Positions 1,775 through 64,000 of a stretch of DNA of 64,000 nt are shown in pieces. Source of the DNA: Moniliella sp. 'wahieum' (Eukaryota); assembly GCA_003971905.1 (NCBI GenBank), contig RSEE01000024.1, positions 558,001 through 622,000 of the forward strand, given 5' to 3'. The translations under genes and the position numbers were made by a program. The first letter of the stretch is position 1. Each line of letters opens with the position of its first letter. The notes under the pieces are model-generated. The model worked only from the letters and a program-made list of their open reading frames with translations. It had not been told where the DNA came from and did no database searches.

Positions 1775-1809
1775 GGTTACCGGTTACCGGTAATCGATAA
1801 TCACCGGTT
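1775..1809. repeat. 7-bp-period palindromic array ACCGGT-T-ACCGGT-A-ATCGAT-A-ATC
   Basis: Read directly: units at 1779, 1786 and 1793, upstream of the D-lactate dehydrogenase gene. Confidence 0.85.
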
Positions 1810-2066
1810 TTAGGCCAGCCAGCCAACGCGGGGTAAATATGCCATGTGTTCTTCTCCCCACCTCCTTTCTCCGTCTCGCTGTCTTTCTCCGCATCTTCGG
1901 CAGAGCAGCCCGCACAGCTGTGTGACCGTCACCGTCGCCAGTCATATATCACCACTGATTAATGATAGTGGGCCCGGCCATGTCTTGAAGTAGCCCCTGC
2001 CACCCACGCAACCCCTCTTCTCCCCACCACCATCTCCCCCCCTCATCCACCACTCTTCGCTGCGCC

Positions 2067-3759
2067 ATGAGGCCGGCGATCGTGCGTTCTCTGCTGCCTC
2101 TCCGCGCGGGGCGTGCAGCCTCGGCCTTTGCCTGGGCCCCCGCGCGACTGCCCATCACACGCTCCATGCATACCAGCTTCTCCCCCCATACCGCTCCAGT
2201 CCCACCCTGCTCGCTACTGCCCTCGCCTTCGGCACGGCCCTTGGTGCCGGTGTGGTGTACTATTCGTCCCAGCCGGTGCGCATTCAACATGATCTTCTTT
2301 CTGCACTGGCTTCTCTCCAGGCCGCCCTGCGCCCAGATCAAGTCAGTGTTCGTGAAGGCGATATCGCCGCCCACGTGTCCGCATGGAGCTACGACGAGGC
2401 CTTTCCCCACGCCGCAGTTGTCTACCCGAGTCAACCGAGGAGGTGAGCAAGATTGTCAGGATCTGTGCGCAGCATGGTGTGCCAGTCACCCCCTACGCTG
2501 GTGGGACCAGCCTGGAATCTCAGACTTCTGCCCCCCATCCCGACGAAGATCCGCGGAGGAGCATTTGTGTCGACCTAGGGCGGATGCGAAAGGTACTCCG
2601 CCTCAGTGTTGGTGACGGCGATGTGACGGTACAAGCCGGGATGGGCTGGGAGGAGCTCAATACCTACCTACGAGAACAAAATACCGGTCTTTTCTTCCCC
2701 ATGGACCCGGGCCCCACAGCGCGGATTGGTGGAATGGCCGCCACCTCGTGCAGTGGCACCAATGCTGTTCATTTCGGAACGATGAACGGAAACTATGTAT
2801 TGTCTCTTGAAGTTGTCCTGCCGTCGGGGGAGGTGATCCAAACCCGATCTCGAGCGCGCAAAAGTGCCGCCGGCCCAGATCTGACCAAGCTTTTCATTGG
2901 CTCCGAGGGCACAATGGGGATCATCACATCTGCCACCTGCGTTTAGCTCCCGTTCGCCCTAACGCAGTGGCCGTCGCCTCGTTCGAATCGATTGACGAGG
3001 CCTGTGCAGCTGGCAACGCTTTGTTGGCGGCGGGGGTAACCCCGCAATGCCTTGAGCTGGTCGACACTGAATTTGCTCTGGCTATTAACCGGGCGATGGA
3101 GGCGGATCCCACCGAGAAACGACGCATGCCCGAAAAACCTAGTCTGTTTATCAAGTTTGTTGGAGCCAGCACGGCTCACCTGAAAGCGGACTGGGGAGTG
3201 GCCCACCCCTTGCTCAAAGCCCGGGGTGGAAGTGGGATCCAATATGTGGATGCACCACAAGCTATGGATGGCCTGTGGAGCATGCGCAAACTGGCACTCG
3301 TCTTTGTGCAGCAGTATCCTCTGTCTCCCTTTGCTGGGGACAACGACGATGACAAAGGGTCATGGCGATTTGTTGGGACGGACGTGTGCGTGCCGCTGAA
3401 GGAGCTGCCCATGCTCATCGCAAAGGCCAAGGCCGCCTTTTATGAGCGGGAGATCTACGCGCCCATCCTCGGCCATGTGGGCGACGGTAACTTCCATGCG
3501 GGACTCATGTGGCGGGAGGGAGACACGGACAAAGAACACAAGGTTCGGGAAATGCTTTCCCACCTTGTTCGGACCGCTCAGGAGCTGGGAGGGACGTGCA
3601 CGGGTGAGCATGGCGTTGGATTGGGCAAGCGCGAGTTTCTGCCTGCCGAACTCGGGCCGGGCACTGTCTCCCTCCTTCGGCAGTTCAAGATGCTGTTGGA
3701 CCCTCAACGTGCTCAACCCTGGCAAGCTTTTGCCGCCAAAAACGGATGCGGACGCTTGA
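2067..3759 (+). CDS. DLD1: Mitochondrial D-lactate dehydrogenase (cytochrome), FAD-linked oxidase family; several apparent frameshifts
   Basis: Arg/Ala-rich presequence MRPAIVRSLLPLRAGRAAS. Motifs PYAGGTSLE, FFPMDPGPTARIGGMAATSCSGTNA, RARKSAAGPDLTKLFIGSEGTMGII, GHVGDGNFH, GTCTGEHGVGLGK and terminal NVLNPGK, spread over overlapping ORFs. Confidence 0.9.
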
Positions 3760-3951
3760 TGGGCAAGGTCTGGAAGCGATAAGCACGATTCGCGCTCAAC
3801 TCTGTACCCGGGACTCGGTGCGTACCCTGTACCCAACACAGCTACGTGTGTATGAGGAGGTAGAGGGTACAGTCCAGAGGGCCTTCTTTGGCCTTATACC
3901 CTGGCAGCAGCTCGCAACTAGTAACAGGTACAAAAAGTGGGTGACAGCATC

Positions 3952-3980
3952 GTGACTAGTGACTAGTGACTAGTGGTGAC
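3952..3980. repeat. (ACTAGT-G)3 palindromic heptamer array
   Basis: gtgactagtgactagtgactagtg; units at 3955, 3962 and 3969. Confidence 0.9.
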
Positions 3981-4485: not shown

Positions 4486-4682
4486 CCCACACGTACTTCT
4501 GTCTTGTCATCGCCCTCGTCTTCGCCACCATTCTCCCGTCATTTTTTCTTCCTCAACCTTTACCCCGGCAGCATAACTTCCCCTTGGACGTCTTCGGGGC
4601 CTACCAGCCTGTGTGTTCCCGCCCCAAATCTTGTTTCTATTTCTACTCCCACAGAGCTCTGCCTGCTGTACTCCTGTACTTG

Positions 4683-4730
4683 ACGCTTGAAGCTTGAAGC
4701 TTGAAGCTCGAAGCTCGAAGCCTGACTCAT
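4683..4730. repeat. (AAGCTT-G)n palindromic heptamer array, 7 units with degeneration
   Basis: ACGCTT G AAGCTT G AAGCTT G AAGCTC G AAGCTC G AAGCCT G ACTCAT. Confidence 0.9.
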
Positions 4731-6860: not shown

Positions 6861-6890
6861 GATAACCGCTAACCGGTAACCGGTAACCCC
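6861..6890. repeat. (ACCGGT-A)n palindromic heptamer array
   Basis: ACCGCT A ACCGGT A ACCGGT A ACCCC; units at 6865, 6872 and 6879. Confidence 0.85.
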
Positions 6891-16017: not shown

Positions 16018-16060
16018 ACACGTCACGCGTCACGCCTTGTCAGCGCTCAGCCTCAGCGCT
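16018..16060. repeat. ACGCGT/AGCGCT palindromic heptamer arrays in the divergent GPD1/omega-amidase promoter
   Basis: ACACGT C ACGCGT C ACGCCT...AGCGCT C AGCCT C AGCGCT. A further ACCGGT-type array lies at about 16335-16363. Confidence 0.8.
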
Positions 16061-16937: not shown

Positions 16938-18029
16938 ATGTCCGCTGGGCCCAAGTTTGTGCTGCACAAGACGGTGCGTCTGGCGCTCGTCCAACTCGGC
17001 AAGACCAGCAGTGTCAAGGCCGCCAACTTGGCCCGCGCCGAGCGGCTGGTGCGCCAGGCCGCCCAGCAGGACGGCGGGGCGGACTTGGTCCTGCTTCCCG
17101 AATGCTTCAACAGCCCCTATGGTGTTTCCCATTTCCCCGCCTACGCCGAGTCCCTGCCGGGGCTGTGGGAGCAGATCAAGTCTCGCCGCGCTTCCACCGA
17201 CTTCTCTCACTGGCCCGTCGACGGCCCCCGGTCAACGTCGACGCGGTCGCCAAGACTTCTGAGAGCGTCAGGGTGCTCTCCAACGTGGCCAAGGAGGCAG
17301 GTATTGTGCTCGTCGCAGGATCTATTCCTGAGCGGGACGACGCCACAGGACGGCTGTACAACACCTGTCTCGTATTCAATGAAAAAGGTCCGTCCCGCGT
17401 CCCCTCCCCCCCAACCCTTACTCGTCCGCTGTAAAGATTTTGCTAACGGGGTTGGTGATATTGTAGGCGAACTCATCTCGATGGAGCGTAAGGTGCACTT
17501 GTTTGACATTGACATTCCGGGCGGCATCACGTTCAAGGAAAGCGAGACATTAACAGCAGGAGATCAGGTCACAGTGTTTGATTGTGCGCTGGGTCGCTTT
17601 GGGGTGGGTATCTGCTACGACATGCGCTTCCCTGAGCTGGCTATGATCGCTGCCCGGCTGGGTGCGGCCGCGATGCTATACCCCGGTGCGTTCAACACCA
17701 CTACCGGGCCACGCCACTGGGAACTGCTTCAGCGTGCACGCGCGGTCGACAACCAGATGTACGTTGCCACTTGCTCCCCTGCCCGTGCGGCCGAGGAGAG
17801 CACGACAGACGAAAGCGGCCATCCGTTGCAGGGCACCAAGGACGGTGCTTATCCAGCATGGGGGCACTCCACCGTTGTCGACCCCTGGGCCGCGGTGATC
17901 AGCACCACTGGGCATGAAGAAGGTATTGTACGCGCCACCCTCGACCCCGAGGTGATTCGCACCGTCCGTAGCTCCATCCCCATCACCACCCAGCGCCGAT
18001 TTGACCTCTACCCCAATGTTGGCGCCTAG
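16938..18029 (+). CDS. NIT3: Nitrilase-superfamily omega-amidase (mammalian NIT2 / yeast Nit3 type); intron 17388-17466; one frameshift near 17230
   Basis: Catalytic E-K-C motifs [34 protein letters not shown] and [11 protein letters not shown]. Also [25 protein letters not shown] and [11 protein letters not shown]. Intron gtccgt...tgctaac...tag. Confidence 0.92.
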
Positions 18030-18825
18030 ACTGCACCGGTTTTCGTCCTCCTGTGCGGCTTCACCGTCCGCAAACCTATGCATGGTATACTAAATACTGT
18101 CTGATTCATATCGTTAGCAGACCTTTCTGAGCAAGGACAGAAGCAAATTTCCGCGCACACCAACAGGCTGACTCATTCACGCTTGCAGGAGCTCGTTCCC
18201 GATATTGAAAGGTAAATGGTGTGGCCAGTCTGTTAGAGGGCCTCCCAACTCCCACCACTCGTCTTCAACTTGGATGGAGCCCGAGTGCATGCCGATGAAC
18301 ACCATATCATTTCGAGTGTCGTTAAAGGCTATCGTTAAATACGTGCATGTTGCTTACTATCTGCAAGACGGAGGGAAGCGACGACGACTAGTCGTGTTGA
18401 ACAATTTCCGTCACATCGGAGGAGTCTCTCCAAAGGTTTATGTAAAAAGAGTCCGGGGCGAATCGAGGGGTTCAAGATGGCACGGTTACATCTATTATAG
18501 CCAGCAGTCGCCGTGTTGGCTCATGACTGCATGACGGACAGGTCTCCATCAGATTGCCCCGACTGACTGAGGGGGCCATATATTACGGAACTGATTACGA
18601 AAGAACAGAGGTGCCCAAAGTGTCTCTAGGTTGCGGAAGCGATGTCGGTCGTGCAGTGAAGACAAAATAGAAGGGTGGGGTGCGAACACAGGCGCACAAA
18701 TGATCGAAATGATGGAAGGCACAGTTACAAGGACCGTGGGCGATTGCTTAGCTCCAGCACCGCAGAGGGTTGTATGTTGTGTAGGAAAGCTAGTATGTCT
18801 CCACACGGAGTTACTGACGGTACTG

Positions 18826-21800
18826 ACGCGTGACGCGTGACGCGGTACAAAGGCACCTGCGACATGTATGAAGAGACTCCCAATCAATCGAAAGCGATGA
18901 GGTACTGACTGGAGTATACTCACCTAGTAAATGGTAACGGGTTACCGATATCGCTGCACATGGCACAACGAGCAAATTACTAGTGGGAAGCTCCTCAAAA
19001 CACCGATGATGCAGCTGATGCGGGGGTAGGAAACAAAGGGCATGCATAGGCTCGAAGAGCAGGAATGACCGCGTCATGTCATGCGTTATTACGACAGGAC
19101 TGCTCGGGTATGTCTTGCATTGCTTCAACAGCCGACTATATAGCTACTGTTGTAATATAAGGTTGAACGTTGTAAGGTTGTGGAACGTCGTAGTACGTAC
19201 TCCCGCCTTCGGCCATGCATCGATATAACCGCTAACAAGCGCTTAGCGCCGCTTGCGCTAACCCTTCCTATGTTGCTTTTGGGGATGCGGTGGGGAAGCC
19301 ATGGGGGAACCAGGGCCTTGTGTTCAACAACAGCGCTGATAGTATCGTTCCCCATGCAAGAGACGCAAAGCAACGTCTCCCCTCTCCGCAAGCGAGAACG
19401 AGTACACCCTATATCCTATTGCGCACTTCAATGCACCCCACAGTACTACAGAAGAGACACACGTACCTGCGGGGCCCCAGTTGCCCTGAAAAAGGTGTAT
19501 GCTCCGTTTTATCGGTTGTATAGTAAACAGGAGACACAATTGTCTCTGTGACTCGATCGACGAAAGAAAGCGGGAATGCTTCGCGCGCTCAGCTTCTCAG
19601 GCTGTGTGAGCTGTGAGCGACTCAGCATGCTCAGGCTCATCAGCGCTCAGCCGCTCAGCGTACCATGTGCAATCAAGCATTGTCTCGGACCTAGCTACCA
19701 AGGCTGGCGATAGGCAAAGGGCGATAGGCAACGAAGATTGTGTTGCAGAGCAAGGAGAGCTACAGACATATTATAGGCCGTGATGAGTTCTTTTCCGCGG
19801 AGGCGAAAGCCAATGGAAGTCCGTGGAAAGGTCCCCAGGGCGCGTTTCATCGACGCACCGCGCTGAGTGTCGGGCCATGTGTCCCTGATGGGCTCTTCTG
19901 GACCAGATAGTTAAAACAAGCATCATTCGTGAACTGTGGACTGGGGTATTACATGTGATGCATGATGCAGATGCGAGTAGAGACTCCCAAGTAGTGTGCG
20001 CTATAGCTGTCATCCATTGGGTTGATCGAGATTGAAAACAAGACGTTGAAGCCTGGTGCATGCAGCAACCGGTCAGTCAGAACAACAACGCGCCAATATA
20101 GTTAACACTACGCCAATCGCCGCAGCGTACCTTTCCTCTTTGTGTGATGATCGTCTTCAAAAACGCCATCGAGTCATCTCCACATTCAATATTCAACCCT
20201 GTTCCTTCAATGCGTTGGCGGCAACATGTGATCGATTTTGTCGTGACTGTCACAGGCCTCTCAGATAACTGGTGCAATAGGCAATGAGGGTATTGCAGAG
20301 AAAGGAACGCTAACGCTGTGTAGAGTTCCGAAGCGGCCAGTCCGCGCAAGGTCCGGAACGCGCTGCCCCGATACACTGTGTGTGCCGGGCTGTCGGGGCC
20401 AAGTGTCGCTGAGGCTCTGGACCACTGGTGATCATCGATCATTGAAGTTACATTCGGCACTGATCGTCTCCAAATTGGATGCAGCAGGATGGAGCAGGAT
20501 ATAGTAGCGCGAGGCTGGATGTGGTGCGATCGGCATCACCCCTGGTATCCACCCCTATAATAGACGCTATACCCCCGGCTACATTGAAAGGGCACTACCC
20601 TTCTCTTATGGTCTCCTGTACCTCTCCTTAGAACAACATCCTCCATTCACATCATCGCAGGCCCTCAGTGAGCCCCTGAGGCCAGGGCCTCGCATCGCCT
20701 CACATCTCACAGATCCATAAGATGAGCATCGGTGCTCAGAAATTACTCTCACGACGTCATTAATCATTTTAATCATCATTGCCAGGGGGTACCACTCAGG
20801 TACTCATGGTTCCTCTCTGGTATTGCCAGGGGGTTATCCGCGGCTATACACGCACGTCGTCAATGATCCTCTTCAGGCCCCGGCATTGATCCTCTTCAGG
20901 CCCTGAGGCCTCAGGGCCTCAGGGTAGAAGGAGCGCTCCCCGCGTTTTGAACGTTTAGCGCTTAGCATTAAACATTTAACGTCGTACTTGGGTGCTTTCT
21001 ACTAGTGTGCTCTATGCACAGAAAAATATGTCAGGAAAACATATGCGTCTCCCGTCTTTTCAACAACACCTTCCAGTGCCAAGCCCTAGAGAAGGCTTTT
21101 GGGGATCGAAGTGCCACCGCTTGGCATCCAGAGTCCACCCGCCCTAATATAAGAAGCTTTCAATTCACGCCATACGACGGCACTTTCGGGCCTGTTCTGG
21201 AAACGTGCGAGAAGGAGCTGCATCGTTCTGCATCGCCATGTTGGTCAGAACTATTCTTACAGAGGAACAGTTTAGATCGGGTGATTTTTTTGGACTTTTG
21301 CCACCGGTGGTCCCCTACCGACCCCGGACCTCTATACAGCTCTACCTGACTACATGTGGCCTGCCACCTCCTGTGTGCAACGCGTCGAGCATCCTGAGGG
21401 GCCCTGAGGCCTGAGTCTCAGGCCTGACCCTGTCCGACTGACCTCTCTGCGGCGCTTCAGGTCGTCTCGTCTCCTGGCCGATCTGACCTCGGGGATTGTA
21501 TGCGACGCCTCCACATCGGTGTACCGAACTGTTTTCCGTGGCAAAGGCAAACAGGAGTGCGCCCCAAACCAAGCCAAGCTCGCATGTGATGAATGATTTC
21601 ACACGTCACACGTCACACGTCACACGTCATCAATTGGTCGCGTGAGTCGCGTGAGTGGCTGAACGTTGGCTGAACGTTGAAATGTTGAACTCTCGAGGGC
21701 GGCAATTCGATCCCCACCCAAAAGGCAAAACAGGCATGGGGGCACTTGCGGGCATTGCGGGCGTTGCGGATGTCGCGGATGTTGCGGCGGGAACTAGCAC

Positions 21801-23612
21801 GAGTGGGACAGGGTGAGTCTCCGGGTCTCAAGAGGCGGCGCCGGTGATGTGGTCAGTTCCGCTGGTGAAACAGGCATAACACCGCTGCGGGGCAGCAGTA
21901 GAGCTAGTAGAGCGTTACAAGTCTCTCCGCTTAGACTGACACACATGTGAGCGCCTCAGCGCCTCAAGGTTTCACCACCTCAGGAGTCACTATTTCCAGC
22001 CACTAGCCACATGTCACATGCCGCGTGTCACATGTCACATGCCACATGCCACATGCCATGTTCAACGCTAGAGCTCTGGAGTACCTAGTTGAACTTGATA
22101 CGTTGAAGATCTGAGGATCTGAGCGCTGAGCGATCGATCAGCAACTAGATTTGGAATTCATATCGATCATCGACATCATACAACTGCATCAATGAGCATC
22201 GATCACACATCATGCATCATCCATCATGCGTCATACCATGCGCCATGCACCATGTATCATGCACCATTCACTTGTGCACCCTATCTCTTACCTCCACCGC
22301 TCCACTATGGTGCTGTGGACCTGGGGAGAGGGATCGTGGGAAAAGCCTGGGGTTGTTGTAGTGGCAACACCCTTTGTGAGCGAGACCGGCCCCGAGCAGA
22401 TCGCGCTGCCTGGCTGGATCTCAAGATCTCAGGGCCCAGGATCATAGAGGTGCGGAGGGGCGCCATCTCCACCTTGCTTGGCGCCTGCGTTCCTAATGGG
22501 GTCTCGTTAATCATTCCCCCAAGTATGGCGTTCGCACAAGGTACAGCCAGTGCCACATCCCGCGTGTGAAGCACGCACGATGCGTGTCAATAACCACTGC
22601 TCACTAGCACTTGCGGTCAACAAGTGAACTAGTAGTGATGCAAATGATCGATGATCGATGATGCCGTGCAACAGAGGTGGGGTTGGACATTGGCCCCTGT
22701 TGCAGCAGAGCAAATCAGTGGTCATCCGGTCATAGACCACAAATGTATCGCACACGGATGTTTCTGCTGCAACGGAGCGGGGCGCGTTCTGTGCGCATTG
22801 CACTACATGAGGGAGTGACTAGTGGGGCACCGTTACCGGGTTGCCTGGAGTGCGTTTTGTGGTTGATGCGTTTTGGTAGGGGTTGGGGCCTGGGAGTACT
22901 GAGAACTGGATTCGAATCCTGGATGATCAATGATCAACGATGAACGTTTAACGTTTAACGTTTAACGAGTAGGAGTACTTGGTATTGGGGTAAAAAGGCC
23001 TAAAAGGAGCATACAAGACAGAGGGAATATACATCGTACGCTATCGTATACTGAGAGGCGACCAGTGACGTGTAATGGGTGACGGATTATGCTCGGCTGT
23101 GTGGGCGGGAGTGTCGGCAATAATGTGGCCGTGCCGGAGCCGCATTGCGCCGTGCCCGGTTCCACCTTGTTCCACCCCGCTAGCAGGCGGCTCTTGAGGC
23201 TGTGTCGGTGGGGCTGGGCCAGCCACACGCCACCCAGCCCAGGCTCGCGCAGAGTCCTGAGGCCTGACCGGCCTGACGAGAAGGGGGGATGGGCGGGCAT
23301 GCCATAGGGCTGGGGGTGGATCTCCCGGTTCGATCCTGCTCGATTGTCAACTACGTACCGGCGGACATGTCTCACTCTACTTTTTTCGACTGGGGGTGTG
23401 GGGAGAGCAGAGCGCCAGGGCGCTGTTGCAGTGCCGCCGCAGGAGGCTGCCCGCAAAATCATCCGCCGTTGGGTTTTTTTGCGGACTGTGCAACGTGCAT
23501 TTGTGTCATCACCGCATTGCCACGACGGCCTGTGACCAGCTTGATGCGGGGCTCTCTATAGAAGGCGCGCTGAGCTCAGCGGCTGAGCGCTGACAGGCGC
23601 TGACGCGCTGAC
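18826..23612. repeat. Dense field of 7-bp-period palindromic hexamer arrays in the gene-free interval upstream of STL1
   Basis: Examples: (ACGCGT-G)n 18826; ACATGT-G-ATGCAT 19951; AACGTT-T-AGCGCT 20950; (ACACGT-C)4 21601; (ACATGY-C)n 22009; (ATGCAY-C)n 22198-22271; (ATCGAT-G)2 near 22646; (AACGTT-T)3 22943. Confidence 0.85.
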
Positions 23613-30904: not shown

Positions 30905-30965
30905 GTCAGCGTCAGCGTCAGCGCCTGACATGTGACATGTGACCTGCTGACATGAGACGCTGAAG
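30905..30965. repeat. GTCAGC tandem repeat followed by (ACATGT-G)n array, upstream of 14-3-3
   Basis: gtcagcgtcagcgtcagcgcctgacatgtgacatgtgacctgctgacatg; ACATGT units at 30928 and 30935. Confidence 0.8.
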
Positions 30966-38241: not shown

Positions 38242-38327
38242 GGAGGGGGAGGGGGGGAGGGGGGGGGAAGGGGAGAGGGAGAGAGGGAGGGAGGAGAGAG
38301 GGGGGGGAGAGGGGGAGGGGAGAGGGG
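38242..38327 (+). repeat. About 85-nt pure G/A homopurine tract just upstream of the PIN4-like gene
   Basis: Only G and A from about 38242 to 38327, with many G runs. Confidence 0.85.
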
Positions 38328-38817: not shown

Positions 38818-39315
38818 ACGCGTGAAGCTTGAAGCTCTTGAAGCTTGACCGGGATTGGTGCATCACCAACATCACGTCCCAGGGACGCGCATCACATTTC
38901 AAACGGGGCTCTGCACGGCTCTGCCTCGCCCTGCTGGTCCACTTTTCGGCTTGTGCGCGGTCCGCTTGCCAGCCTGCACGTCACCGCGTCACCCGCCATG
39001 GTCCTTGACCAGCTGGATCCAGCAGCCAGCAATCCTGCCTGGCCAGCGCGAATCCCCACATCCGTCTCATGCGCCACCTCGTGTACATGTGCACGCACAT
39101 GTGCCTGTGCCTTATTGCAGCTCCTGGATCCGGCCATCTGCCTGTACCAGCAGCTGGGTGGGGTGTGTCAGCCGCGCTTGTCTGTTGTGGGTGATTAATG
39201 ATTTCCGACATTGGCCTCGTGTTGCGTTTATGACCCCCAAAAGCTCTCACATCTCGGGTTCAACGTTCAACGTTCAACACGGTCAATGTACGCTCAAGCT
39301 TCAAGCTTCAAGCTA
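38818..39315. repeat. Palindromic heptamer arrays upstream of the PIN4-like gene
   Basis: ACGCGT G AAGCTT G AAGCTC at 38818; (AACGTT-C)2 at 39262; (AAGCTT-C)2 AAGCTA at 39296. Confidence 0.85.
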
Positions 39316-43223: not shown

Positions 43224-45603
43224 ACCAGTCACGAGTCACTAGTAAGGTCGAGGGAAGCAACCGCTACTATGTAAGTGACAATACGTGACAGTCACCAAGT
43301 GGCTACTGGCTGCGACGCACGCATCACGCGTCGCTAGTCACTATAGCACTCGTGACCAGATCGGTGACCGGTGATCGACGATTGAATGAGAAATGCACAC
43401 CGTTGCTGACCATCCCGCCGGCAACCATCACACGCCCGCCCGCCGCCACTATGTATACAAGTGCACAAGCCTCCATGTCTTTCTGCTCCCTCGTCTCCAC
43501 TTTCGTGGATTTTCGCTGCATTCGACCTGCGTTTCTCCGATTCTGAGACCTAACCCTTCGATGCTTCAAGCTTCACTTCCCTGCCAGGACCGCACAGAAA
43601 AGCACTCTGCCTGGGTGGAATCGAATTGAACGCAACGGACAAAAAACGTATTACCCCCCAGTGGTGTGTGTATACTTCGCTACCGCGCGTGGAACGCATA
43701 AAGCTTCCGCTGATTTAAGCGCTAAGCTCAAGAATCACGCCCAGGGGAGAGGGCGTTCGCGGCCTTTTTGGTACAAGTTTTGGTACAAGTGTCAAATCGT
43801 TGGGACATTATATAATGGTGGGAATTGCCCAGTGCTTAGCTCAGGCGCTCAGATCTCAAGCGAGGCCTCAGGTCAGGCTGAGAACGCTGAGCCAGTCCGA
43901 GTGCTGAGACCCATCAGCGCATCAGCAGGCACATTCAGATCTGAGTAATACTCCTGACTCTGCACTAATAATGGCTACGTGCCTCGTCAAGCGCTCGGGC
44001 CTCGGCCCCTCTCCTGAGGCCTCAGGCCTCAGGGGCCTCTTGAGCATGACGCGTGACGCTTGAAGGCGATTGAGAAAGAGGCCGTATTAAGGGCGCAGCG
44101 GTTGGGCAAGGGGGACGACGGAACGTATTTCGAAGGTATGTCACATATCCATCCTCTGAATCTGAGGTCTGAGGGATTTGAGGCCTGAGGCTCAGGCCCT
44201 GAGGCCTCTCATCCATCGATCATCTCCCGGAGGTATCGAAAGTACCAGGCAGCTATAGAGGAGGGAAGAGGGTATATCTTGTTTGACTTTATCTCGACGC
44301 ATTCGGCCTTCGTGTGCACGGCAGGAGGGCTGGACAGGTTACCGGTTAGCCTTACTATATAGAGCTTGTTCGCGCCAAACTAAGCGCGAAGTGTCAAACG
44401 CGGATTAAGAAGAAGAAAAGCTTTCATAATAAACCACAAGTGTCTAACGGGGCGCCAAATGGTGCATGGACCAACTAGCTCCTCTGCGAGGCGCTCACTT
44501 GGGGCTCCGCGCCCCACGGACGTGCTCCGCCGTTTGTACTGTGTGTGAACGCTGAACGAGCAAAGCACAGGCCAAGCACACGGTAATTGGTACCCTTTAA
44601 TCGGTAAAGTTTCTTGATGCTGAAGTTTGACGTGTGATGTGTGATGCATGATGGTGCGACGAGCCCTCCGGCCTCCCGACGGTGTACGGTACCTGGCTTT
44701 GTTAAGGTGATTTTCGGGGGGTGTTGTGTGGAGTGTGGCAGACGGAGGGCAGGCGAGGCAGAGCGAGGCCACGTGGTGAAGTTTTAAGTATGTGATACCG
44801 TGACGGGTTTGATGCTGTCGGCAGCGCATAACGCGCAAGGCGCAGCGCATAACACGTGGACGGTGCCGTCTGGTGCCGGCATGGAACAGCTGGGAACCGC
44901 TGGAACATCCGCAAGCGCCAGCGCTCAAGCGCTCAAGTGAGCGAGTGACTAGCAGCTAGTGATTTCTGTAACCATGTACGTACTCAGTCTCGGTGGCCCG
45001 TGCTGCAGATGCATGATGCATGATAGCATGATGCTGCAGTGTTAGTCATGTTAGTGAAGCGTGACGCGTGAAGCCACTGATGCATGATGCATTGCATGCT
45101 GCAATTGCGGCGATACTGAAAATGTTGGCGGTAATGCGGTAACCGGTACACGTTAAACGCAACCGGCGGAAGAAGAGGAAGAGATTCGGTAATCAGGAAT
45201 CCTGATGAAGTAATCGATAAACGCTGTTCGATGACCAGCGACAATCGATCATCGATCACTCGATCACAGGCCATTAGTAAGTAGGGGTGCCATGCATCAG
45301 GTAAACCTTCAACTAATTTCACTAGTCACTAGCTCTTCGTCGATCCTGTTCTCTCTCCCTCTACCAGTGGATCTTTTGCTGCCCTTGGTACTTTTGGTCT
45401 CCCTCGCATCGCGCGACCCTTAGGCCTTAGGCCTTACAGAGGGCAACTTATTGATATCCGTGATAGATCAGATGATCAATCTGATTGGTCAGGCTGTCAG
45501 GCAACTGTGGTACTGGCTGATGCGCTGATGTCCCTCTCTCTCGCGTGGAGGATAGGAATAATCAAGAACAAGTGACCGGCCGGTGTCCGGTAACCGGTAA
45601 CCC
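43224..45603. repeat. Dense field of 7-bp-period palindromic hexamer arrays upstream of creA
   Basis: Examples: ACCAGT C ACGAGT C ACTAGT 43224; ATCGGT G ACCGGT G ATCGAC 43360; (AGGCCT-C)2 44017; (ATGCAT-G)2 45009; (ATCGAT-C)2 45244; (AGGCCT-T)2 45422; ccggtaaccggtaacc near 45586. Confidence 0.85.
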
Positions 45604-46211
45604 TTGGTCGTCCTCCTTCGCTCACTGATGTTACACTTCTAAGTTTTAACCAATTGCATCAGAAGTTTAGTACAAGACGTCCACCCTTGTGGAACGCCAA
45701 CAAGAGAAAAAGAGGGAGAGCTGCATCTCTCGATTCTTATCTATACACTCTCTCGAGCGCATTCTATGGAAGACGCACTCAAATTCCTTTCATGATGCAT
45801 TGCATGAAGCTAGCGTACCATTACACCAAAAATTCCTAAGATGTTTGAACCATTATACCCTTTTTGCTCTGCCAGGCTTTGAGATGAATGTGGAGGTGTT
45901 CTTGCAGGCGAAAGGGCTAGTCAACGCGCGTATCATTCACATCTTCTATCTGAATGATTTGATGCAACAGCCTTTCCCTTGGATGCACCCTTGAGCTTAC
46001 GACCTGTACAGCAGTTTCACATTACATTCTCAGCAAGAGCCCCACTAACGCATTGTACTGATCCTCTGATCCTCCCATTCGATGTGTTCAAAAAGGTACC
46101 AATGCTACTGACGTTGGCCTCATCACAGTTCGCCTGCGCCAAAACCAGGACGTGGGCAAGGAAGATGTAGTAAGAAGGGCATAGAAGGATTCGGCTGTAG
46201 CCACCTCGCGC

Positions 46212-47950
46212 TTACGGCTCCAGACGCTTGGGGTCACGGGGGAACATGGAGGCAAGTCGAATGTTGCCAAGGCCGAGGTAGAACTCAACCACACGCTCGA
46301 GCCCAATACCGCCGCCGGCATGGGGCGGAGCGCCAGCTTGAAAGCGTCCACATAAGGTTGGAGCGACTCGGGGGAACGCCGAGTTCCTTCATGCGACTCA
46401 CGAGCAGATCCGCGTCGTGGATACGCTGGGCACCCGACAGCACCTCTTGTCCGCGCATAAACATGTCGAACGAGTTGGAGTAGCGAGGGTCGGCTGCGTT
46501 GGGCATCGTGTAGAAAGGACGAACGGCGGAAGGGAATTGGTCCAGAACGTAAAAGTCAGTCTGGTATTTTTCCCGGACCAGCGCACCGAGCTTCTTTCAG
46601 TGGGCGTGTCCAAGTCCTCAAAGTCCGGCCAGTCAATACCGTTCTCCCGCAGCAGCTTGATGCCGTCAGCCCAGTGGAGGATAACAGGCTTCTCAGGACG
46701 AGGAACTCTTCCCGGGTACTGACGCTTGACAATGTCAATCTGCTTGGCGTAGCGCTTAGGCAGCTCGAGGAAGATGTGGTGGAAAAGACCAGCAATGAGC
46801 TCGAGCGCCTCGTGGTAATGTTCCTTGAAAGCCATCTCGAGATCTAGACCGATAAACTCAGTCAGATGGCGCGCTGTATTCGAGTTTCCGCACGGAAAAC
46901 AGGGCCAATCTCGTAGACACGGTCAAAGTCAGCAGCAATGGCCATCTGCTTGCCCAGCTGCGGGGACTGGGCCAGGAAAGCTTTGCCGTTGAAGTACTTG
47001 ACCTCAAACACGGTCGCTCCTGACTCTGTCGCACCACCTTGGAGCTTGGCTGTGTGAATTTCAACAAAGTTCTCGTTGGTCAAGTACTCGCGGAAGAGGT
47101 TGCCAACAGCCGCCTGCACCTGGAAGATGGCCTGGTTGGTGGGGGTACGCAGGTCCAACACACGGTTGTCAAGACGCGTGTCCAGACCAATGATGGGCAT
47201 GGGCTGAGCCGTCGACTGCGACGCCTGCACCTCGGCGTCGGAACGGGTCGCATCCTGCACCGAGAATTTTTGTTCCAGCGTAGGGATGACCTTGGTGATT
47301 CGAATGGATTCTCAATCTTGATCTCGGCATCCTTGACCGTAATAGCAGCCGAGCTGATAGGCGTGTTGACCTTGTTCACCACACCCTGAACAATGACAAG
47401 CGTCTCGTTGGGCAGACTGCAGGCCACTTGATCATCTTGCCGCGAAACCTTCTCGGGCGTCTCCGCGAGGACAGCCTGGGCAACATCCAGGCGGTCACGA
47501 AGGACGAGGAAGACAAGCTTGGCACTGGTAAGACGCGCTGACTGGACACGCACCTGGAGGTGCACGCGCTGACCATCCTTGCTGGCGTCGATCTCGTGCA
47601 GGTTGGCCCACTGGAGGCGCGGGCGCTCTGGGATTGGTTGAGCGGGGCCTGGCCGTAGTACTGCGACGCAAAGTCGGCCTCGTTCTCGCGAGCAGCCTTC
47701 TCGGCGGCCAGTTTAGCGGCACGCTCCTCCTTCTGGCGCTTTCTCAGCCTTTTCGGCGCGCTTACGCTTCTGCTTGTCGGACGAGGCGTGCCATCGGGGC
47801 TGGAGGGGGGGGGGGGTTAGTCTCGGGGCGGGGGGCTTGAGGATGGCAGGGAACGCACTTGAGCTCTTCGCCGGCGGCGGGAGCAGCCGCGGCAGGAGCA
47901 GGGGCAGCGGGTGCGGGGGTAGGGACGGTAGGCTTAGTCTCGTCGGCCAT
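46212..47950 (-). CDS. DPS1: Cytosolic aspartyl-tRNA synthetase; intron 47800-47858; many frameshifts
   Basis: [77 protein letters not shown], terminal [19 protein letters not shown]. Confidence 0.95.
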
Positions 47951-49710
47951 GGCGAATGGGGGGGTGGTGTTGGTGGGGGCGTGGAAGGCACGTGGCGCTG
48001 ATGGATTGTGAGCTAAGCTGCGAGGTCCAACGTTCATACACAGCCGCAGACAGGGGGCGGAATGCAGGTGGTACCTGCTTGACTTTGAACGTTGAACTTC
48101 CACGGCGAGTCTTGGCCGGCCGGGGCCGACATTGGCTACACTCGCTCCATGGGAACAAACAGGCCCAGGAGAGAACACACCGCCTGCGCCCCACTCTACC
48201 CCCGCTCTGGTGGGGGTGCCTGGCACAGACTGGCTGGGCTTGGCGTCCCCCCATCCTTTCCGGTCCCTGCCCATCGATGGCAGCCAATCCGGCAGGCCCG
48301 TCTTGGATAAGAGGTGCAGGCGGAAATGCTCCATGGAGTATTTGTTCTTTTTTCTCGTCCGACTCACGCAATCGAACAGCACCACAGATAAACCAAGTGC
48401 AATCATCCTCACTCTATCTATGATGGAGCCCCTGGCGCTGGTATTGGCCACGGCAGTACTTCGACTAAACTTCAGCGGGAAGGAGGGAGTTGGAGTCGGT
48501 GGCTGCAATAGGAACGGTGCCCTGGAGCGGCCCACACAGACGGAGCTGAACCCCGTTACACGCAGGACACTCTGCGGCCTGAGCACAACGGACAGTGGAC
48601 CGATGCTGTTGGTGGGCTAAAGGATGCTGTACCCGCTTGACTCGATGAACGTTGACATGATACCGCTGGACGAGGGAGTGCACGGACCAGGAGAGCTGAA
48701 CCTGGTATACGCGCTCAGGCGATGGGGCGGCGTGGGTAAACCGCAGCTTAGCCGCTAATATGCTTCAGGGCGATTGTCAGCCAGAGGGTATATTGGCGTA
48801 GAATCAATTCCACAGCACCACCACGGAACACTATCGACCTCCGTCACTGCACCGCATGGTTGTCGGGTAGGTCTCGTCGTGCCACGGCGAGTCAGCCCTC
48901 CGGAGAACACGCTCGACCTCTTCACAGGCTATCGAAGGCTGCCAACCAAACACGAAGCGAGAGGTCGTTTTTGGGAGAGCAAACTGTTCGGCCTTACGTC
49001 CATTGTTCACGTTTTGGACTTGAACCTTGTGGTGTACTCCACGCTCCTTGGACAATGAGATCGAGCAGCTGGGCTTTGCGGGCAAAGTGTACGGCGCCTA
49101 TTATGTGCGCGGCCAGGCGCTCAAACGAGGGTTTCTACGGCGCGCCCCCCGCACTGACTAGTGACTGGCCTCAGCAACGATGACGCGTGCAAGAGGTGGA
49201 GAGCGATGAGTAGGTGCTGATTTGGCCGTGCTGCTACGGCGCGCCTCCTCCCGCAGGCGACTCGCCGGAGCTGACGACGAAGCGGTTCTAACGGGTACCA
49301 CACGATCACAATCCCTCCCTTGCCGAGGCGGGTATACGACGGGGCTTGCTGTGGCGCACATGGCGACTCGCTTCGATCGCCCGACGAGCAGGAGTCGGAG
49401 AAGCTGGCAGACGAGCAGATGGCCAAGCGCGAGCTGGCTATGCGCGTGCGCTGCATCTGCTCGAGGACGGCATGGGCATCCCTCTCACCGCCCGCGAGGC
49501 CCGCATGCCAGCGTGTGCACCGTTATTAGGCGGGCGAAGCCAGCTGCGGTCGGGCGAGCGCCGACAGCCACCGCTTACTGACGAATGACGCGTGACGTGG
49601 CAGCCGGGGCAGATTGCTTACGTACTGCTCCGGCCCGCCCTGCCTTCTTGGTCGGTCGCTGTGCCAGCGGACGCGTGAAGCGCAGCCACCACCGCCGGAC
49701 GATCGCCGCC

Positions 49711-51301
49711 ATGTCTGCTGCCGCCGCTGCGCCTGGTCCCGGCCAGTTCATTGGCCAATGGATCTCCCTCACCAGCAAGTCGGAGCACCGCTACAAGGGC
49801 CTCCTCGCCGCCATCAACCCTACCGACGCCACCATTTCTCTCGAAAAGGTCCGCAGCTATGGCACGGAAGGCCGTCTTGCTGCCAAGGGCCGCCCGGCAG
49901 AGGAGCTGCCGCCCAACGACAAGGCCTTTGACCTTGTCGTGTTCCGCGCTTCCGATGTCCAGGACCTCAAGATCGAAGATGCGTCCCGCGCCCGCGCCCG
50001 CCGCCCCTCTGACCGACCCCGCCATCCTCAACGTGCGTATCCCTTCCCCGTTCCGTTCCATCTCCTCTCGTGCGTGAGGTACAGAGTGTTGATTCTCGTG
50101 GGTTTTGGACCTTGTAGCAGAGTGGAGGCCCACCGCCTCCCGCTCCGGGGTCCTGGGGCGTCCCGCCTCCCGCCGGCGCTCCCTCCGGCCCGTTCCCTGG
50201 GTACGACGCGCCTTATGGCTACCCCGCTCCTCCACCTGGGTTTGGAGGGCCGGGCGGGTTTAATGCCTTTATGCCCTGGGGCCCGCCCCCCGGGCCGTAC
50301 GGAATGCCTCCTCCGGGTCAATCCTATGTGTCCCCCCAGGCACCGGCTAACCCTCCGGCTGCAGCGCCGTCGGCGGCTACCCCATCTTTGCCTGGCACTA
50401 CCAACCCAGCTCCGGCCCCGGCTCCGGCCCCTGCATCGGCTCCTGCCCCCGCTCCTGCTCCTGCCTGCTCCTGCTTCGGCACCCGCCGCTGCACCGGCGA
50501 CTGCGCCTGCGCCTGCCTCGGCCCCGCCCCGGCCCCTACGCCAGCTCGTGCCCCAGTTTCTGGATCTCGGAAGCCTACTGAGCCTCAAGCCGCAGTTAAG
50601 GCGAGACTTCCTAGCAAGCCCGCCACCCAGCAGCCTGTTCCGCAGGCTACTCCTGCATTTAGACCTCCGGAGGGTACGGTCAACGCAGAAGATACGAAGG
50701 CGCGCAATGCTGGTGCGGCGCAGCGGATGAGTTGGTGAACGACTTGATGGGCCTGACGGTTGGACCGCGCAGCACTCCTGCTGTGGACCAGGCAGGCGCG
50801 TCTGTACCGGCTGCGCCCAGTGCCCCGCACGGGTTGCCCCCCGTCCCTCATGCCGCTACGGCGGCGGCTAGTTTGGCCCGGCACCCCCCTCCCCCGCGGC
50901 GGGCGGCTGACAAGCCCCCCACCGACTTGACCACCGACTTTGACTTTGAGAAGGCGAATGCCAAGTTCAGTAAGGACAAGTTGGATGGGGACGTGGCGCC
51001 CTCGGCCGTGCTTACCTCCATCCCGGCTGCCGACGAAAAGCGTTCGTTCTACGACAAGAAGAGTGGGTTCTTTGATGACATTTCGTCCGAGATCAAGCAG
51101 CGCTATGCGGCGCCGGAAGACCGTCGCGGATTCCGCCAGCAAGAAGCCGCGCGCAACATGGCTACGTTTGGGGACTCGGGACATGCGTATGGCCGGGGCC
51201 GAGGCCGGGGTCGCGGTCGGGGCCGCGGCCGTGGAAGGGGACGTGGGCCTCGTGGGGCGGAGGACGCGTTGGGATCCTACCCTGCTCAGCCGAGTGTGTA
51301 G
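49711..51301 (+). CDS. SCD6: Scd6/Lsm14 mRNA-decapping activator (LSm14 domain, FDF/FFD/TFG motifs, RGG tail); intron about 50033-50120
   Basis: FIGQWISLTSKSEHRYKGLL...EKVRSYGTEGR...VVFRASDVQDL; DFDFEKANAKF; FYDKKSGFFDDIS; RNMATFG; (RG)n. Confidence 0.92.
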
Positions 51302-51870: not shown

Positions 51871-51903
51871 GGTTAGCGGTTAGCCTAAGCGCTTAGCGCT
51901 AAC
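51871..51903. repeat. AGCGCT-type palindromic heptamer array upstream of RACK1
   Basis: AGCGGT T AGCCT A AGCGCT T AGCGCT A AC. Confidence 0.8.
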
Positions 51904-60804: not shown

Positions 60805-60944
60805 GGTGGATGCGTGGTGGAGGCGTTGCAGCGGCCCACGCCCAATGGCCATCCATAGGCTCCACTCCTGGGGGAGAGACGGGGCAGCAACCCTACGGCC
60901 AATTCGTGGGGCGCCCTGCCGCAGCAGGGCTGCTGTGCTTGGGG

Positions 60945-61050
60945 GTGTGATGAGTGGTGAGTGATGAGTGATGCGCGACCGGTGACCGGTGATGGTCGAT
61001 GGGCTGGGGTGCGTTCACACATTCAATCTGAGATCTGAATGTTGAAGCAG
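60945..61050. repeat. Palindromic heptamer arrays in the RPS3/RMD1 divergent promoter
   Basis: ATGAGT G ATGCGC G ACCGGT G ACCGGT G ATGG at 60964; AGATCT G AATGTT G AAGC at 61031. Confidence 0.8.
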
Positions 61051-61988
61051 GCCACTGGCCATTCCCTGGTCCCTGCCCTTCCCCATCGCGTGGGCTGGGT
61101 TGCCGCCTTGCCTTTGCGTCCGCCCTCCCCGGGCTGAGAAAGTACGGTATCATATATCATTCCTCCTGGCCCACTATTGCCTCTGGGTGCGGGTCCTACA
61201 GGAGTCCAGGACGGCGGGTCGCAACAGGCGGTCACAGCATGTGCGCCACAACTCCACCAGGCTGCAGTTCAATATAAACGTCCTCGTGATTTTCTCAAGC
61301 TCAGTGGTACAGCGGGCCCCTGGACGTCCTGGACCATTGACAGTCGACGTTTTCAACTGTCGATCAACGTCCCCCGGACCGGGGTGCCGCCACGACTCAT
61401 TCAAGGGTATTGCTTGCACCCAGTGCTGCTATCCCTCTCTATCCTCTGCGACTACCACCGACCGCGAGCCAGTTGCCCAGCCAGACCGTCATGGTTACCG
61501 TGTTGCGCAAGCGCTCAAGCCTCTTCCATTGATTCCCCCCCGGCTTTGAGCTATATGAGCACCCCGGGCTTGATGGCAACTGTCAGTTCTCTGTCCCAAC
61601 TGTATCGCGCACTGGGCCGACTACATAATAATTGCCTTCCAGGACAGCAACACTGCTGTCACTTCCTGTTTCAACGCTGGGGCAGACTGTCCCGTTCGGC
61701 TCCCTCACTCTGGCACCCTTCGTGCCCTATGCCCGTCAGAGGTGGGAGCGCAGCGCTGCGAGACCACGACTTGGAGGCACGACGAATGGGGAAGACAAGG
61801 GCAGCAATAATCGTGCGTGCGCGCATATGACGTAAGACGGCGTGATCCCAGGCCAGCGACCCCCCTTTTATTGGCAAAGTCAGCGAGCGGTTCAGGTTCA
61901 GTTCGGGTGGCCGGAATCGACCAAAGACCATCACCATCTACCTGCTGGGCCTGTCTGCGCTCTGCTCGCTTCGCCCTCCTGCGTTCCA

Positions 61989-63554
61989 ATGCCAGCCAAG
62001 CCAATAGGCGCGAGGGACAACCCACGCCCTGGCCCCCAACGCTCCACCAAGGCCCTCGGCAAATTCAAGATCCTGCCCGATGGCGCTGATGTGCCATCTG
62101 CCCCTCATCCACCACCCTCGGCCGACCCCGGTCCTTCCCCCGACGAAGACAGCAGCGACGACATGGACGACAACGACGAGCTCTCCGAGCAGCAGGCTTT
62201 CCTTGACCGCATCCCCGAGGGATCCATGCGGCGCGATGCGCGCCGCCTCACCCGCAAGGCCCGTGCCGAGCTCCCCCGTGTTACGGCGTATTCCACCGCT
62301 ACCTCCTACCGCATGGCCGACCTGGTTACCTGGCTCACCGCACGCAAGGCGACCCATCATACCAACCCAATGACGTTTGATGAGTGTGTCTATTCCACCT
62401 ACACGTACAAAACCATGCAAGACATTCTCAGTGGCACCAATAAACCGCATCCTCCCCCCCTTCCCCAGGCTAGTGCGGACAACCATCCGCCTCCCCGTCG
62501 CCCTCCACCTTACTGGCCTCCACCCACGGGCAATCTTATCGGAATTCCAGAACTGAGCGAGGAAGCTGAGGCTGAGGCGGAAGCTGAAGCGCAAGCTGAG
62601 CTCGCGGACGAAACACACGCATTGCTCAGTGGCCATGCAACCGACTCTGCTACCGAGAGCGGGACAGATCACTGGGCAAATGGCTTTGGCTTTGGAGAGG
62701 CGCGTGCTCTTGCCGTGGGCAAGGGGTTGGAACAGACCGTTAAACCGACCACCGAGGAAGCAGGCGAGCGCTTGGAGCATGCGCGGCGCCGTCGCCGCGA
62801 GCGTTTCGCCGTTGACAACCATATTCCCGAGGTCTTTTTTATGGAGTACGGGGCGGTGGTTATTTGGGGTATGACAGAACATGAGGAGCATCGTTTACTC
62901 CGAGAAATCCGCCGGTTCGAAGTGGAGCGGGTGGCATCCGATGACATTGAGTCGGAAGACCTAAACTGGTATTTGGCCGACTATTCCCGGATCTACAATG
63001 ATGTGATCACGCTGCGTAAGGGTAGTGGCTACATGACCAAACTTTCCCTTTCGCATGCTCTGGCTCAGTCGACCAAGATCTCGTTCTTTGAGGGGGTGAT
63101 TGACAACACAATTGACAGCACCAAGGATATTCCTCAATCGATCGCCGAGAGTGGTACCATTGGGCTCCCACCGAAGGATATCATGAAGCAGATTGGCCAC
63201 CTGTTCATCCTGCGTATGAATCTTCACCTTGTTGGCTCTATTGTCGACTCCCGAAATCTTTTGGGCACAACCTGATTTGGAACCGCTTTACTCGGCGGCT
63301 CGCTCCTATCTCGAAATTCCACAGCGGATCGATCTGCTCAACACGCGCGTGGAGGTGCTGCAAGACATGCTTCAACTACTTAAGGACCAAGTGTCCACGG
63401 TTCATTCCGAGTGGCTCGAAATTATCGTCATTGTGCTCATTATTGGGGAGATTGTGCTGGGTTGTGCGACCAGTATGTTGATATCTTTGTCATTTGCGTT
63501 ACAAAGTTGGATACTGACAGGACTGCTGTAGTGTTCGTCGACCTGTACGTTTGA
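61989..63554 (+). CDS. RMD1: Rmd1/DUF155-family protein; frameshift near 63250; intron 63473-63531
   Basis: GPQRSTK, LPRVTAYSTATSYR, EVFFMEYGAVVIWGM, RIYNDVITL, KLSLSHALAQSTKISFFE, IGHLFILRMNLHLVGS, PEIFW, ARSYLEIPQRIDLLNTR, LEIIVIVLI. Confidence 0.9.
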
Positions 63555-64000
63555 GTAGAGCTTTCCCCTCCTCCGTTTTCCCTCTGTATACCAATTATTT
63601 TTATCTTTTCCTGCTCCATATCAACGTTCCTGCTCCATGTCAACGTATCAGACTTGTACATTTTGTGCTTTCTGCATTCAGGGCCATTCACTCCGGTCCC
63701 ACGATGCAGCTGATGATCCGCGGCTCAGACGCCTACAACTTTGTACATCCTTGTCGTCTGCTCGAGCGTGCAATTTTCTGTGGGTGCGCTCAAATACCGG
63801 GATGACCATGTTGAGCCGCAACCTTCACACATTGCAACCGTAAAAACCAAAAAATGGTCGGATACCTTCAACTGTCGCGGGCCAGGAAGTGGCCACGGCT
63901 GAGTGAGCGCTCACGGTGAGCCTCACGCCGAGGTAGGCATGGCGAGGTACCACGGCTTGAAGAATCAAGCACAAAGGAAGGTCCAAAAGATTGAGGCAGC

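Follow-up and report, generated by a model that had tools for sequence, protein, structure and literature searches.

In the 64,000-nucleotide stretch of contig RSEE01000024.1 of Moniliella sp. 'wahieum' analysed here (positions 558,001 to 622,000, hereafter the window), the non-coding DNA carries many copies of a short structure of fixed geometry. Its basic unit is a 12-mer and not, as the first-pass annotation of this DNA had proposed, a tandem array of palindromic hexamers. The 12-mer can be written TNAab-b'a'-TNAab: a 5-base direct repeat starting with the trinucleotide T-N-A, its two copies separated by a 2-base spacer which is the reverse complement of the two bases preceding it. We tentatively favour, at somewhat less than an even chance, the explanation that the 12-mers are neutral scars of a lineage-specific break-and-rejoin process combining a 5-base target duplication with two P-like (palindromic) nucleotides. 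Apart from those given for metagenome contigs, all counts refer to this single 64-kb window, and both strands were scanned for the 12-mer.

The pattern is real and lies far above chance. An identical palindromic hexamer repeated after one spacer base (P-N-P) was found 19 times for hexamers beginning with A, and once, never and once for those beginning with C, G and T, respectively; with spacers of 0 or 2-6 bases each class gave 0-2 cases. In 200 dinucleotide-preserving shuffles, the A-class count at spacer 1 had a mean of 0.07 and a maximum of 1, in agreement with the excess of A...T hexamers at this spacer expected at first pass. The accompanying statement that arrays of C-, G- or T-initiated palindromes do not occur holds for G, but the C and T classes have one array each (CTCGAG, inside the SAPS gene, and TGATCA). 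All 24 hexamers listed by position in the first-pass annotation are present, 15 of them with a second copy exactly 7 nucleotides away and the other nine as single hexamers in a TN-hexamer-NA frame. As for its figure of at least 11 of the 16 possible ANNNNT palindromes, only 10 form true P-N-P pairs, AGATCT not being among them, whereas 15 of the 16 occur in the TN-hexamer-NA frame.

To separate coding from non-coding DNA, 23 gene intervals were drawn from codon-bias scores of open reading frames (ORFs) and from Pfam matches; these intervals are approximate and ignore introns, and they divide the window into 35,147 bases of coding-like and 28,853 bases of non-coding DNA. The TNA autocorrelation of the non-coding part was 2.7-fold at lag 7, 1.8-fold at lag 14 and 1.4-fold at lag 21, as compared with 0.8-fold at lag 7 in coding-like DNA, which bears out the 7-base period. 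When pairs of TNA separated by 0-10 bases were scanned, a 4-bp palindrome between them was found 99 times, as compared with 7.1 in shuffles (maximum 15), and this was the only architecture enriched: non-palindromic 4-mers were at the background level (129 versus 117), and neither 2-bp palindromes (26 versus 28.1) nor 6-bp palindromes (2 versus 1.7) were in excess. Among exact arrays of at least two copies, 51 have period 7, as compared with 9-25 for each of the periods 2-6, 13 for period 8 and 0-2 for periods 9-15. These 51 arrays hold 2-4.4 exact copies; 28 consist of T-N-A plus a 4-bp palindrome, with at least 10 different cores, 7 of TNA plus a non-palindrome, and 12 of a palindrome without TNA, several of them variants with CCA or CGA; the remaining 4 are unrelated.

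The typical instance is not an array, because 67 of the 82 maximal chains of the form TNA(palindrome-TNA)k contain a single palindrome (k = 1), with k = 2 in 13 and k = 3 in two. Beyond the end of a chain, the period-7 match continues for exactly two bases in 23 of the 82 chains on the left and in 23 on the right, about 3.8 being expected by chance, and usually on one side only. Among the 38 chains in which both right-flank bases match, the two left-flank bases match in neither position in 14 cases, in one position in 7 (0,1) and 6 (1,0) cases, and in both in 11. The 12-mers are thus not decayed 14-mers, since the (0,0), (0,1) and (1,0) counts stand in a random ratio. Perfect 12-mers occupy 89 positions at 56 loci, as compared with 0.25 in shuffles of the whole window; when shuffling was confined to the non-coding segments the counts were 87 versus 0.17, and in coding-like DNA 2 versus 0.18. 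The excess in the lag-7 run-length spectrum peaks at five matched bases (113 runs, as compared with 45-66 at lags 4, 5, 8, 10 and 11), and its tail is consistent with chance extension. The 12-mer by itself accounts for the palindromic hexamer A-ab-b'a'-T, for the interrupted palindrome b'a'-TNA-ab and for the period of 7 bases.

The T and the A are obligatory in the 12-mer. When the first and third bases of the repeat were varied, the TNA class gave 89 instances and every other class at most 12 (0.2-1.1 in shuffles), some of which are readings of the same arrays in another phase; the role of T-N-A as fixed anchor, claimed at first pass, therefore stands. The bases a and b are nearly unconstrained, the 15 hexamers found in frame being almost the full set, although the palindrome centre prefers C or G (34 of 44 one-sided single units); in the flank logo of these 44 units no base is conserved besides the T, the A and this centre. 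The inverted dinucleotide lies on the TNA-distal side 89 times out of 90, the single exception being proximal. Among the 134 period-7 repeats of TNA plus two bases, 89 have as their spacer the reverse complement of the two preceding nucleotides. Inverted tracts of 0, 3 and 4 nucleotides were not enriched (6, 3 and 0, versus 5.1, 0.2 and 0.1 in shuffles), and tracts of one nucleotide only slightly (8 versus 1.0).

The middle base N is the same in neighbouring TNAs in 78 cases, complementary in 12 and otherwise different in 9 (shuffles 1.9, 1.8 and 3.0), and this predominance of identity indicates that the TNA is copied directly. In 22 of the 28 arrays of TNA plus palindrome N is G or C. These observations bear on the possibility that each unit is the footprint of a PIF/Harbinger- or IS5-like element, made up of a 3-bp TNA duplication plus two nucleotides from each inverted terminal repeat (TNA + xy y'x' + TNA). 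The target of the PIF/Harbinger superfamily is TNA or TWA, duplicated over 3 bp there as in the IS5 group. The arithmetic of 3 + 4 = 7 agrees, inverted termini would make the 4-mer palindromic automatically, and the same N on both sides fits a duplication. The 10 or more cores in arrays, and 15 overall, would however need as many families with different termini, and a footprint of this kind leaves unexplained why two further bases match the core on one flank. Moreover, N is mostly G or C and not A/T, the duplicated stretch is 5 bases and not 3, and no such element lies in the window. We therefore consider this origin very improbable; what is shared with these elements is that T-N-A is both anchored and duplicated. 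Harbinger excision is reportedly mostly precise.

The complementary-N cases form perfect 10-bp palindromes, TNA + 4-bp palindrome + TN'A, of which there are 12, as compared with 1.8 in shuffles:

128-137, 10-bp palindrome with complementary N
20904-20913, 10-bp palindrome with complementary N
43935-43944, 10-bp palindrome with complementary N
63904-63913, 10-bp palindrome with complementary N
8 others elsewhere in the window

They exceed what point mutation of N alone would be expected to give, as judged from the 9 cases with another N, and may represent a second kind of junction, in which the inverted tract is longer. Direct repeats of TNA plus two bases are also about eight-fold enriched at periods 8 and 9, and there the spacer opens with the inverted two bases in 19 of 44 (p = 4e-12) and 15 of 33 cases (p = 3e-10), respectively, the expectation being 1/16. 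These repeats are the 12-mer structure with one or two extra junction bases, a junction diversity typical of end-joining. Neighbouring units with different cores (palindrome-TNA-palindrome) were found 30 times, as compared with 4.7 in non-coding shuffles; an estimated 12 or so more are to be expected simply from the two outer sides of every scar, at each of which a palindrome has a chance of 1/16, so that such neighbours are weak evidence for a wider 'grammar'.

Individual loci illustrate the range from single 12-mers to arrays:

1775..1803, mixed chain TTA-CCGG TTA-CCGG TAA-TCGA TAA, with two nested 12-mers, TTACC GG TTACC and TAATC GA TAATC
3952..3975, array (TGA-CTAG) x3.4 between the FAD-oxidase and mitofissin genes
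4679..4725, array (TGA-AGCT) x3.4 passing into mutated (CGA-AGCT) x2.7, the variant unit itself being duplicated, as in slippage-type growth
6863..6888, array (TAA-CCGG) x2.7, beginning at the T of TNA and stopping at the palindrome centre
16021-16035, TCA-CGCG unit adjoining the next 12-mer
16040..16051, single 12-mer TCAGC GC TCAGC upstream of the glycerol-3-phosphate dehydrogenase gene
18824..18844, array (TGA-CGCG) x3
21599..21629, array (TCA-CACG) x4.4, a variant class with period 7 and TNA but a non-palindromic core
22006..22058, degenerate array of TCA-CATG mixed with CCA-CATG units
22923..22968, TGATCAA x2, then TGA-ACGT, then (TTA-ACGT) x3.6
30926..30958, array (TGA-CATG) x2.6 upstream of the 14-3-3 gene
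39258..39314, two arrays, (TCA-ACGT) x3 and (TCA-AGCT) x3, with 15 nucleotides between them
43700..45720, densest population, gene-poor, with the cores GGCC, CGCG, TGCA, TCGA, CTAG, CCGG, GCGC and GATC
49155..49166, single 12-mer TGACT AG TGACT
51873..51902, TAA-GCGC TTA-GCGC TAA, neighbouring TNAs with complementary N (the minority class)
60947..60992, (TGA-GTGA) x2-3 abutting (TGA-CCGG) x2.3, between the RPS3 and RMND1 genes

Once two or more full units are present, arrays also grow through duplication of a unit, as seen where a T-to-C variant unit has been copied (4703-4721). Array ends are mixed in their joint classes: 9 of 28 arrays start at T and 10 of 28 end in mid-palindrome, and iteration of the 12-mer rule predicts a phase that some of the ends do not have. 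Microsatellite-type slippage of 7-mers, biased to units capable of forming hairpins, could account for this growth and for the dominance of period 7 among exact arrays (51, as compared with 0-25 at other periods), and the prokaryotic heptamer arrays, with their unexplained locus-specific units, which we met in metagenome contigs (see below), speak in the same sense. As the origin of the structure it is improbable. Fewer than two full copies are present in the 67 single-palindrome chains, lag-7 runs most often span 5 bases (about 1.7 copies) and not 7 or more, non-palindromic 4-mers between TNAs are unenriched, and the unit sequence is constrained, 28 of the 51 exact arrays obeying the rule of TNA plus 4-bp palindrome. 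The stronger palindromes with C/G ends are absent, and the stability predicted for single-strand hairpins of six arrays is low (-2.6 to -8.7 kcal/mol, z from +0.06 to -3.6). The single units, the run peak at 5 and the restriction to palindromic cores thus uphold the earlier view that these are not ordinary slippage microsatellites, as well as its preference for a mutational or scar origin over chance.

As the first-pass annotation had noted, the structures avoid coding exons, and this is approximately correct: 79 of the 82 chains lie outside the rough gene intervals and three inside, and coding-like DNA is at the shuffle level (3 versus 3.0). Perfect 12-mers occur at about 2 loci per kb in the non-coding DNA, whose 28.9 kb hold nearly all of the 56; over 22 intergenic regions the density ranges from 0 to 4 per kb. 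Two gene-poor intervals, 18027-24071 with 15 loci and 42802-46287 (the 3486-nucleotide interval between the C2H2 zinc-finger and aminoacyl-tRNA synthetase genes) with 14, together hold 29 of the 56, evenly spread, at a density that does not exceed that of several short intergenic regions. Both lack a convincing ORF; the first is situated upstream of the gene for the STL1-like transporter, the second upstream of that for the C2H2 zinc-finger protein. With respect to flanking genes the 12-mers show no strand bias (28:21, p = 0.39). A role as three-frame stop-codon arrays, with TGA/TAA on the sense strand of the gene, had been suggested by a ratio of 17:6 counted by eye and was rejected on this full count.

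With 0, 1 and 2 mismatches allowed, 89, 103 and 281 12-mers were found, as compared with 0.25, 9.2 and 103 in shuffles; the excess thus amounts to about 94 one-mismatch and 178 two-mismatch 12-mers against 89 perfect ones. This spectrum suggests continuous birth and mutational decay, and not purifying selection. From a simple steady-state argument, the birth rate per non-coding TNA site can be roughly estimated at half the per-base substitution rate.

These distributions bear on the hypothesis that the structures are selected cis-elements, bound by a dimeric factor or a component of chromatin that reads TNA-N4, whether as separate sites or as a structural lattice. Their confinement to non-coding DNA, their density in the long upstream regions of two genes, one for a regulated transporter and one for a zinc-finger protein, and the dyad symmetry of each unit are in agreement with it. 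Nevertheless, at least 15 different cores occur in which only complementarity is kept, which no protein can specify, and with 15 of the 16 A...T hexamers in frame no recognition sequence is conserved. The 2-nucleotide flank match on one side has no binding logic, mismatched 12-mers are as common as perfect ones, orientation and position show no preference, and most instances are single units. Selection for cis-elements is therefore quite improbable, and the lattice with a 10.5-bp repeat that the first-pass annotation had offered as one of three candidates, read by a protein or by chromatin, is the least supported of the explanations, given the 67 single-unit chains, the frequent mismatches and the lack of strand or position preference.

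The combination of a staggered cut, which leaves a target-site duplication, with the repair of a hairpin-capped end, which leaves P nucleotides, is a classical two-step signature, known from the joints of V(D)J (variable-diversity-joining) recombination. Since the 12-mers combine a duplication of fixed length with junction bases palindromic to the flank, and contain no foreign sequence, we read them as break-and-rejoin scars. The structure of the 12-mer is seen directly in the sequence; it would have been born as a 7-base insertion beside a T-N-A site, and the break, the hairpin and the neutrality of the product are what we infer from it. In the proposed course of events, a staggered and oriented break at TNA plus two bases would duplicate 5 bases in the manner of a target-site duplication. 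The end without TNA at its tip would pass through a hairpin or fold-back opened two nucleotides off-centre, whereby two P-type nucleotides would be added before end-joining, occasionally with one or two extra junction bases. Each event would create a second TNA+2 site, so that repeated events, together with slippage once two full units are present, could build short arrays. Because an insertion of this kind causes a frameshift and in most cases brings in a stop codon, it would survive only outside coding sequence. Candidate agents are a transposon that excises via hairpins on the flanking DNA, a domesticated transposase or nuclease, or a template switch during replication. Excerpts of PMC5499845 describe cleavage by hAT, Transib and MULE elements and by RAG1 as forming hairpins on the flanking DNA, which are opened by host enzymes and sealed by end-joining, leaving footprints.

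Several points weigh against this explanation. Pfam scans of 80 ORFs and a search for terminal inverted repeats gave no transposon, terminal inverted repeat or transposase domain in the 64-kb window, and none of the 25 longest of 71 inverted-repeat pairs flanks an element, several of these lying inside period-7 arrays. For symmetric hairpin transposons, P nucleotides are expected at either flank and in variable number, while those proposed here occur on one flank (89:1) and almost always number exactly two. In contrast to the targets of dimeric transposases, the 5-mer that is duplicated here lacks symmetry, TNA occupying its positions 1-3. The polarity of the insertion would follow from inference and not from observation, array boundaries do not all fit a pure iteration of the 12-mer, so that slippage has to be invoked as a second process, and neutrality is suggested by mismatch-class counts in a single 64-kb window. 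The third candidate of the first-pass annotation, excision scars of an element targeting TNA, comes closest to the sequence of the three that it proposed, but the duplicated target is 5 bases and no element is found in the window.

The one-flank P nucleotides, the asymmetric 5-mer and the lack of an element in 64 kb make an oriented, perhaps domesticated, nuclease a live alternative. In a stronger form, which is possible although we regard it as unlikely, an endogenous and oriented DNA-cleaving activity of this lineage would break or nick non-coding T-N-A sites genome-wide, with a 5-base stagger and a hairpin at one end, at a rate per site roughly estimated at half the point-mutation rate. Its agent could be a domesticated transposase or another nuclease.

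An error of replication without a double-strand break would give the same product if the nascent strand copied TNAab, moved for two nucleotides to the complementary or a displaced strand and returned 5 nucleotides upstream. This would be a duplication-inversion-duplication (DUP-INV-DUP) at nano-scale, produced by flap or template-switch mutagenesis. Its direct-inverted-direct topology fits the 12-mer, a moving polymerase makes the one-sidedness natural, and small inverted triplications at a scale of about 150 bp are linked to loss of FEN1/rad27 and to Okazaki-fragment ends in excerpts of PMC13334657. The strict T and A are, however, left unexplained, ANT, CNG and GNC being equally self-complementary, as is the fixed 5+2 geometry, and the extra one or two bases at periods 8 and 9 resemble end-joining more. 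A template switch of this kind thus appears distinctly unlikely. The fold-back around T-N-A listed as the first of the earlier candidates is borne out in part: an inverted copy exists, although it is centred within the 4-bp palindrome and not on TNA, and N is copied directly.

Compared with known systems, the scar interpretation finds its closest parallels in hairpin-type footprints (hAT, Transib, MULE) and in V(D)J joints. Common to them and to the 12-mers are a direct target duplication of fixed length (here 5 bases), a few palindromic bases copied from the neighbouring flank and, occasionally, extra junction bases, with no foreign sequence left behind (for the mechanism see PMC5499845). In contrast to these footprints, the addition here is found on one flank and almost always comprises two nucleotides, the 5-mer is asymmetric with T-N-A first, the loci number about 2 per kb and the window holds no element. 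Transib itself duplicates 5 bp, but at a GC-rich target rather than TNA. DUP-INV-DUP structures and small inverted triplications (PMC13334657), as well as snap-back synthesis in alternative end-joining (PMC2943611 and PMC5728401), have the same direct-inverted-direct topology, arising from template switching or from fold-back priming at a break. These events span hundreds of bases or leave heterogeneous junctions at induced breaks, whereas the structure here is a fixed 5+2+5 at one trinucleotide.

A further parallel is offered by the mobile G+C clusters of yeast mitochondrial DNA, reportedly described by Weiller et al. in 1989 as having duplicated TAG targets and occurring singly or in tandem. 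As here, the insert is palindromic and lies between two copies of a trinucleotide target, and arrays arise through re-use of that target; unlike the present case, the clusters are mitochondrial and belong to 30-40-bp families of fixed sequence, while the 12-mers are nuclear and their 4-bp palindromes are templated by the local flank.

Prokaryotic intergenic heptamer repeats, such as the cyanobacterial STRR and the GGGAATC repeats of Xanthomonas covered in excerpts of Rehm et al. 2015 (PMC4692102), are likewise of period 7, intergenic, made of locus-specific units and unexplained, but they form long arrays, often in inverted pairs, of non-palindromic units with neither the TNA-plus-palindrome rule nor the 5+2 geometry. 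A metagenome scan with (TNACCGG)x3 gave at least 121 matching stretches; 120 loci (556 kb) were analysed. By an exact-run test, 111 of the 120 hold at least one array of (TNACCGG) type, and an array of the same grammar with a different core was present only in L069 and L008; none of the 120 contigs matched in this way has the multi-core grammar, and no relatives were thus found among them. Beyond the seeded arrays, about 20 perfect 12-mer loci occur in the 556 kb, as compared with 56 in the fungal window. In four of the contigs (L048, L054, L059 and L076, with a GC fraction of 0.63-0.65), period 7 is dominant with 7-11 arrays each, the units often carrying TGA or TCA and being non-palindromic; these arrays belong to the prokaryotic heptamer-repeat class.

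In line with the first-pass annotation, which knew of no description of this pattern, none was found by literature search, which covered the main text of articles. The excerpts of the tandem-repeat survey PMC3152781 contain nothing relevant to it, and those of a high-throughput melt study give no loop-specific values for the stability of a T-N-A triloop.

The window has a G+C content of 58%, and the Pfam scans (12 + 68 ORFs) matched only eukaryotic housekeeping genes, among them an FAD-linked oxidase, mitofissin, GH127, glycerol-3-phosphate dehydrogenase, a nitrilase-type hydrolase, an STL1-like sugar transporter, ADE2, 14-3-3, an R3H/RRM protein, a C2H2 zinc-finger protein, a class II aminoacyl-tRNA synthetase, Scd6/LSM14, a WD40 protein, a SIT4-associated protein, RAI1, ribosomal protein S3 and RMND1. 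A 300-residue piece of ADE2 has 62-64% identity to most of its top named matches, which come from several lineages of Ustilaginomycotina (Testicularia, Violaceomyces, Melanopsichium, Sympodiomycopsis), and 57-60% to Malassezia, 84% being reached only in other assemblies. From these identities and the eukaryotic gene content, the window is placed as nuclear DNA of a sparsely sampled lineage of Ustilaginomycotina, the smut-fungus subphylum. In contrast to ADE2, the STL1-like transporter (24435-26111, plus strand), which has 62% identity to its best named matches, finds nearly all of its named matches in Eurotiomycetes (Penicillium, Aspergillus); paralogy or an old transfer could account for this difference. 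Other features of the window are the following:

27103-27208, minus strand, tRNA by Rfam (46.6 bits), probably with an intron inside, the match spanning 106 nucleotides against a 71-position model; ARAGORN gave no tRNA in the window
32141-32185, 18-bp repeat x2.5 in the tail of the 14-3-3 gene
36430-36446, run of 17 G, and 38242-38327, 86-nucleotide purine-rich low-complexity tract, within or beside the R3H/RRM gene
50405-50537, 6/12-bp repeats of Pro/Ala type in the Scd6/LSM14 gene

If the 12-mers are indeed break-and-rejoin scars, one rule-bound process would have left about one perfect scar per 500 non-coding bases, with decayed ones at least equally numerous. Such a process would act as a major source of insertions specific to this lineage and as a seed of short tandem repeats, and would provide promoters with a steady supply of new palindromic 6-10-mers. 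The scars would be of a kind already known, target duplication with P nucleotides, and there is a fair chance that the agent itself is new. The chemistry of the break would moreover be legible in the genome, through the length of the stagger, the offset of hairpin opening and the end that is processed, giving a concrete handle on the enzyme. In the case of an endogenous cleaving activity, its deterministic 7-base repair signature would be a novel and predominant origin of indels and of short tandem repeats, and would naturally generate palindromic sites in promoters. If the structures were instead selected, they would amount to a cis-code of symmetry only, independent of sequence, which would be stranger still.

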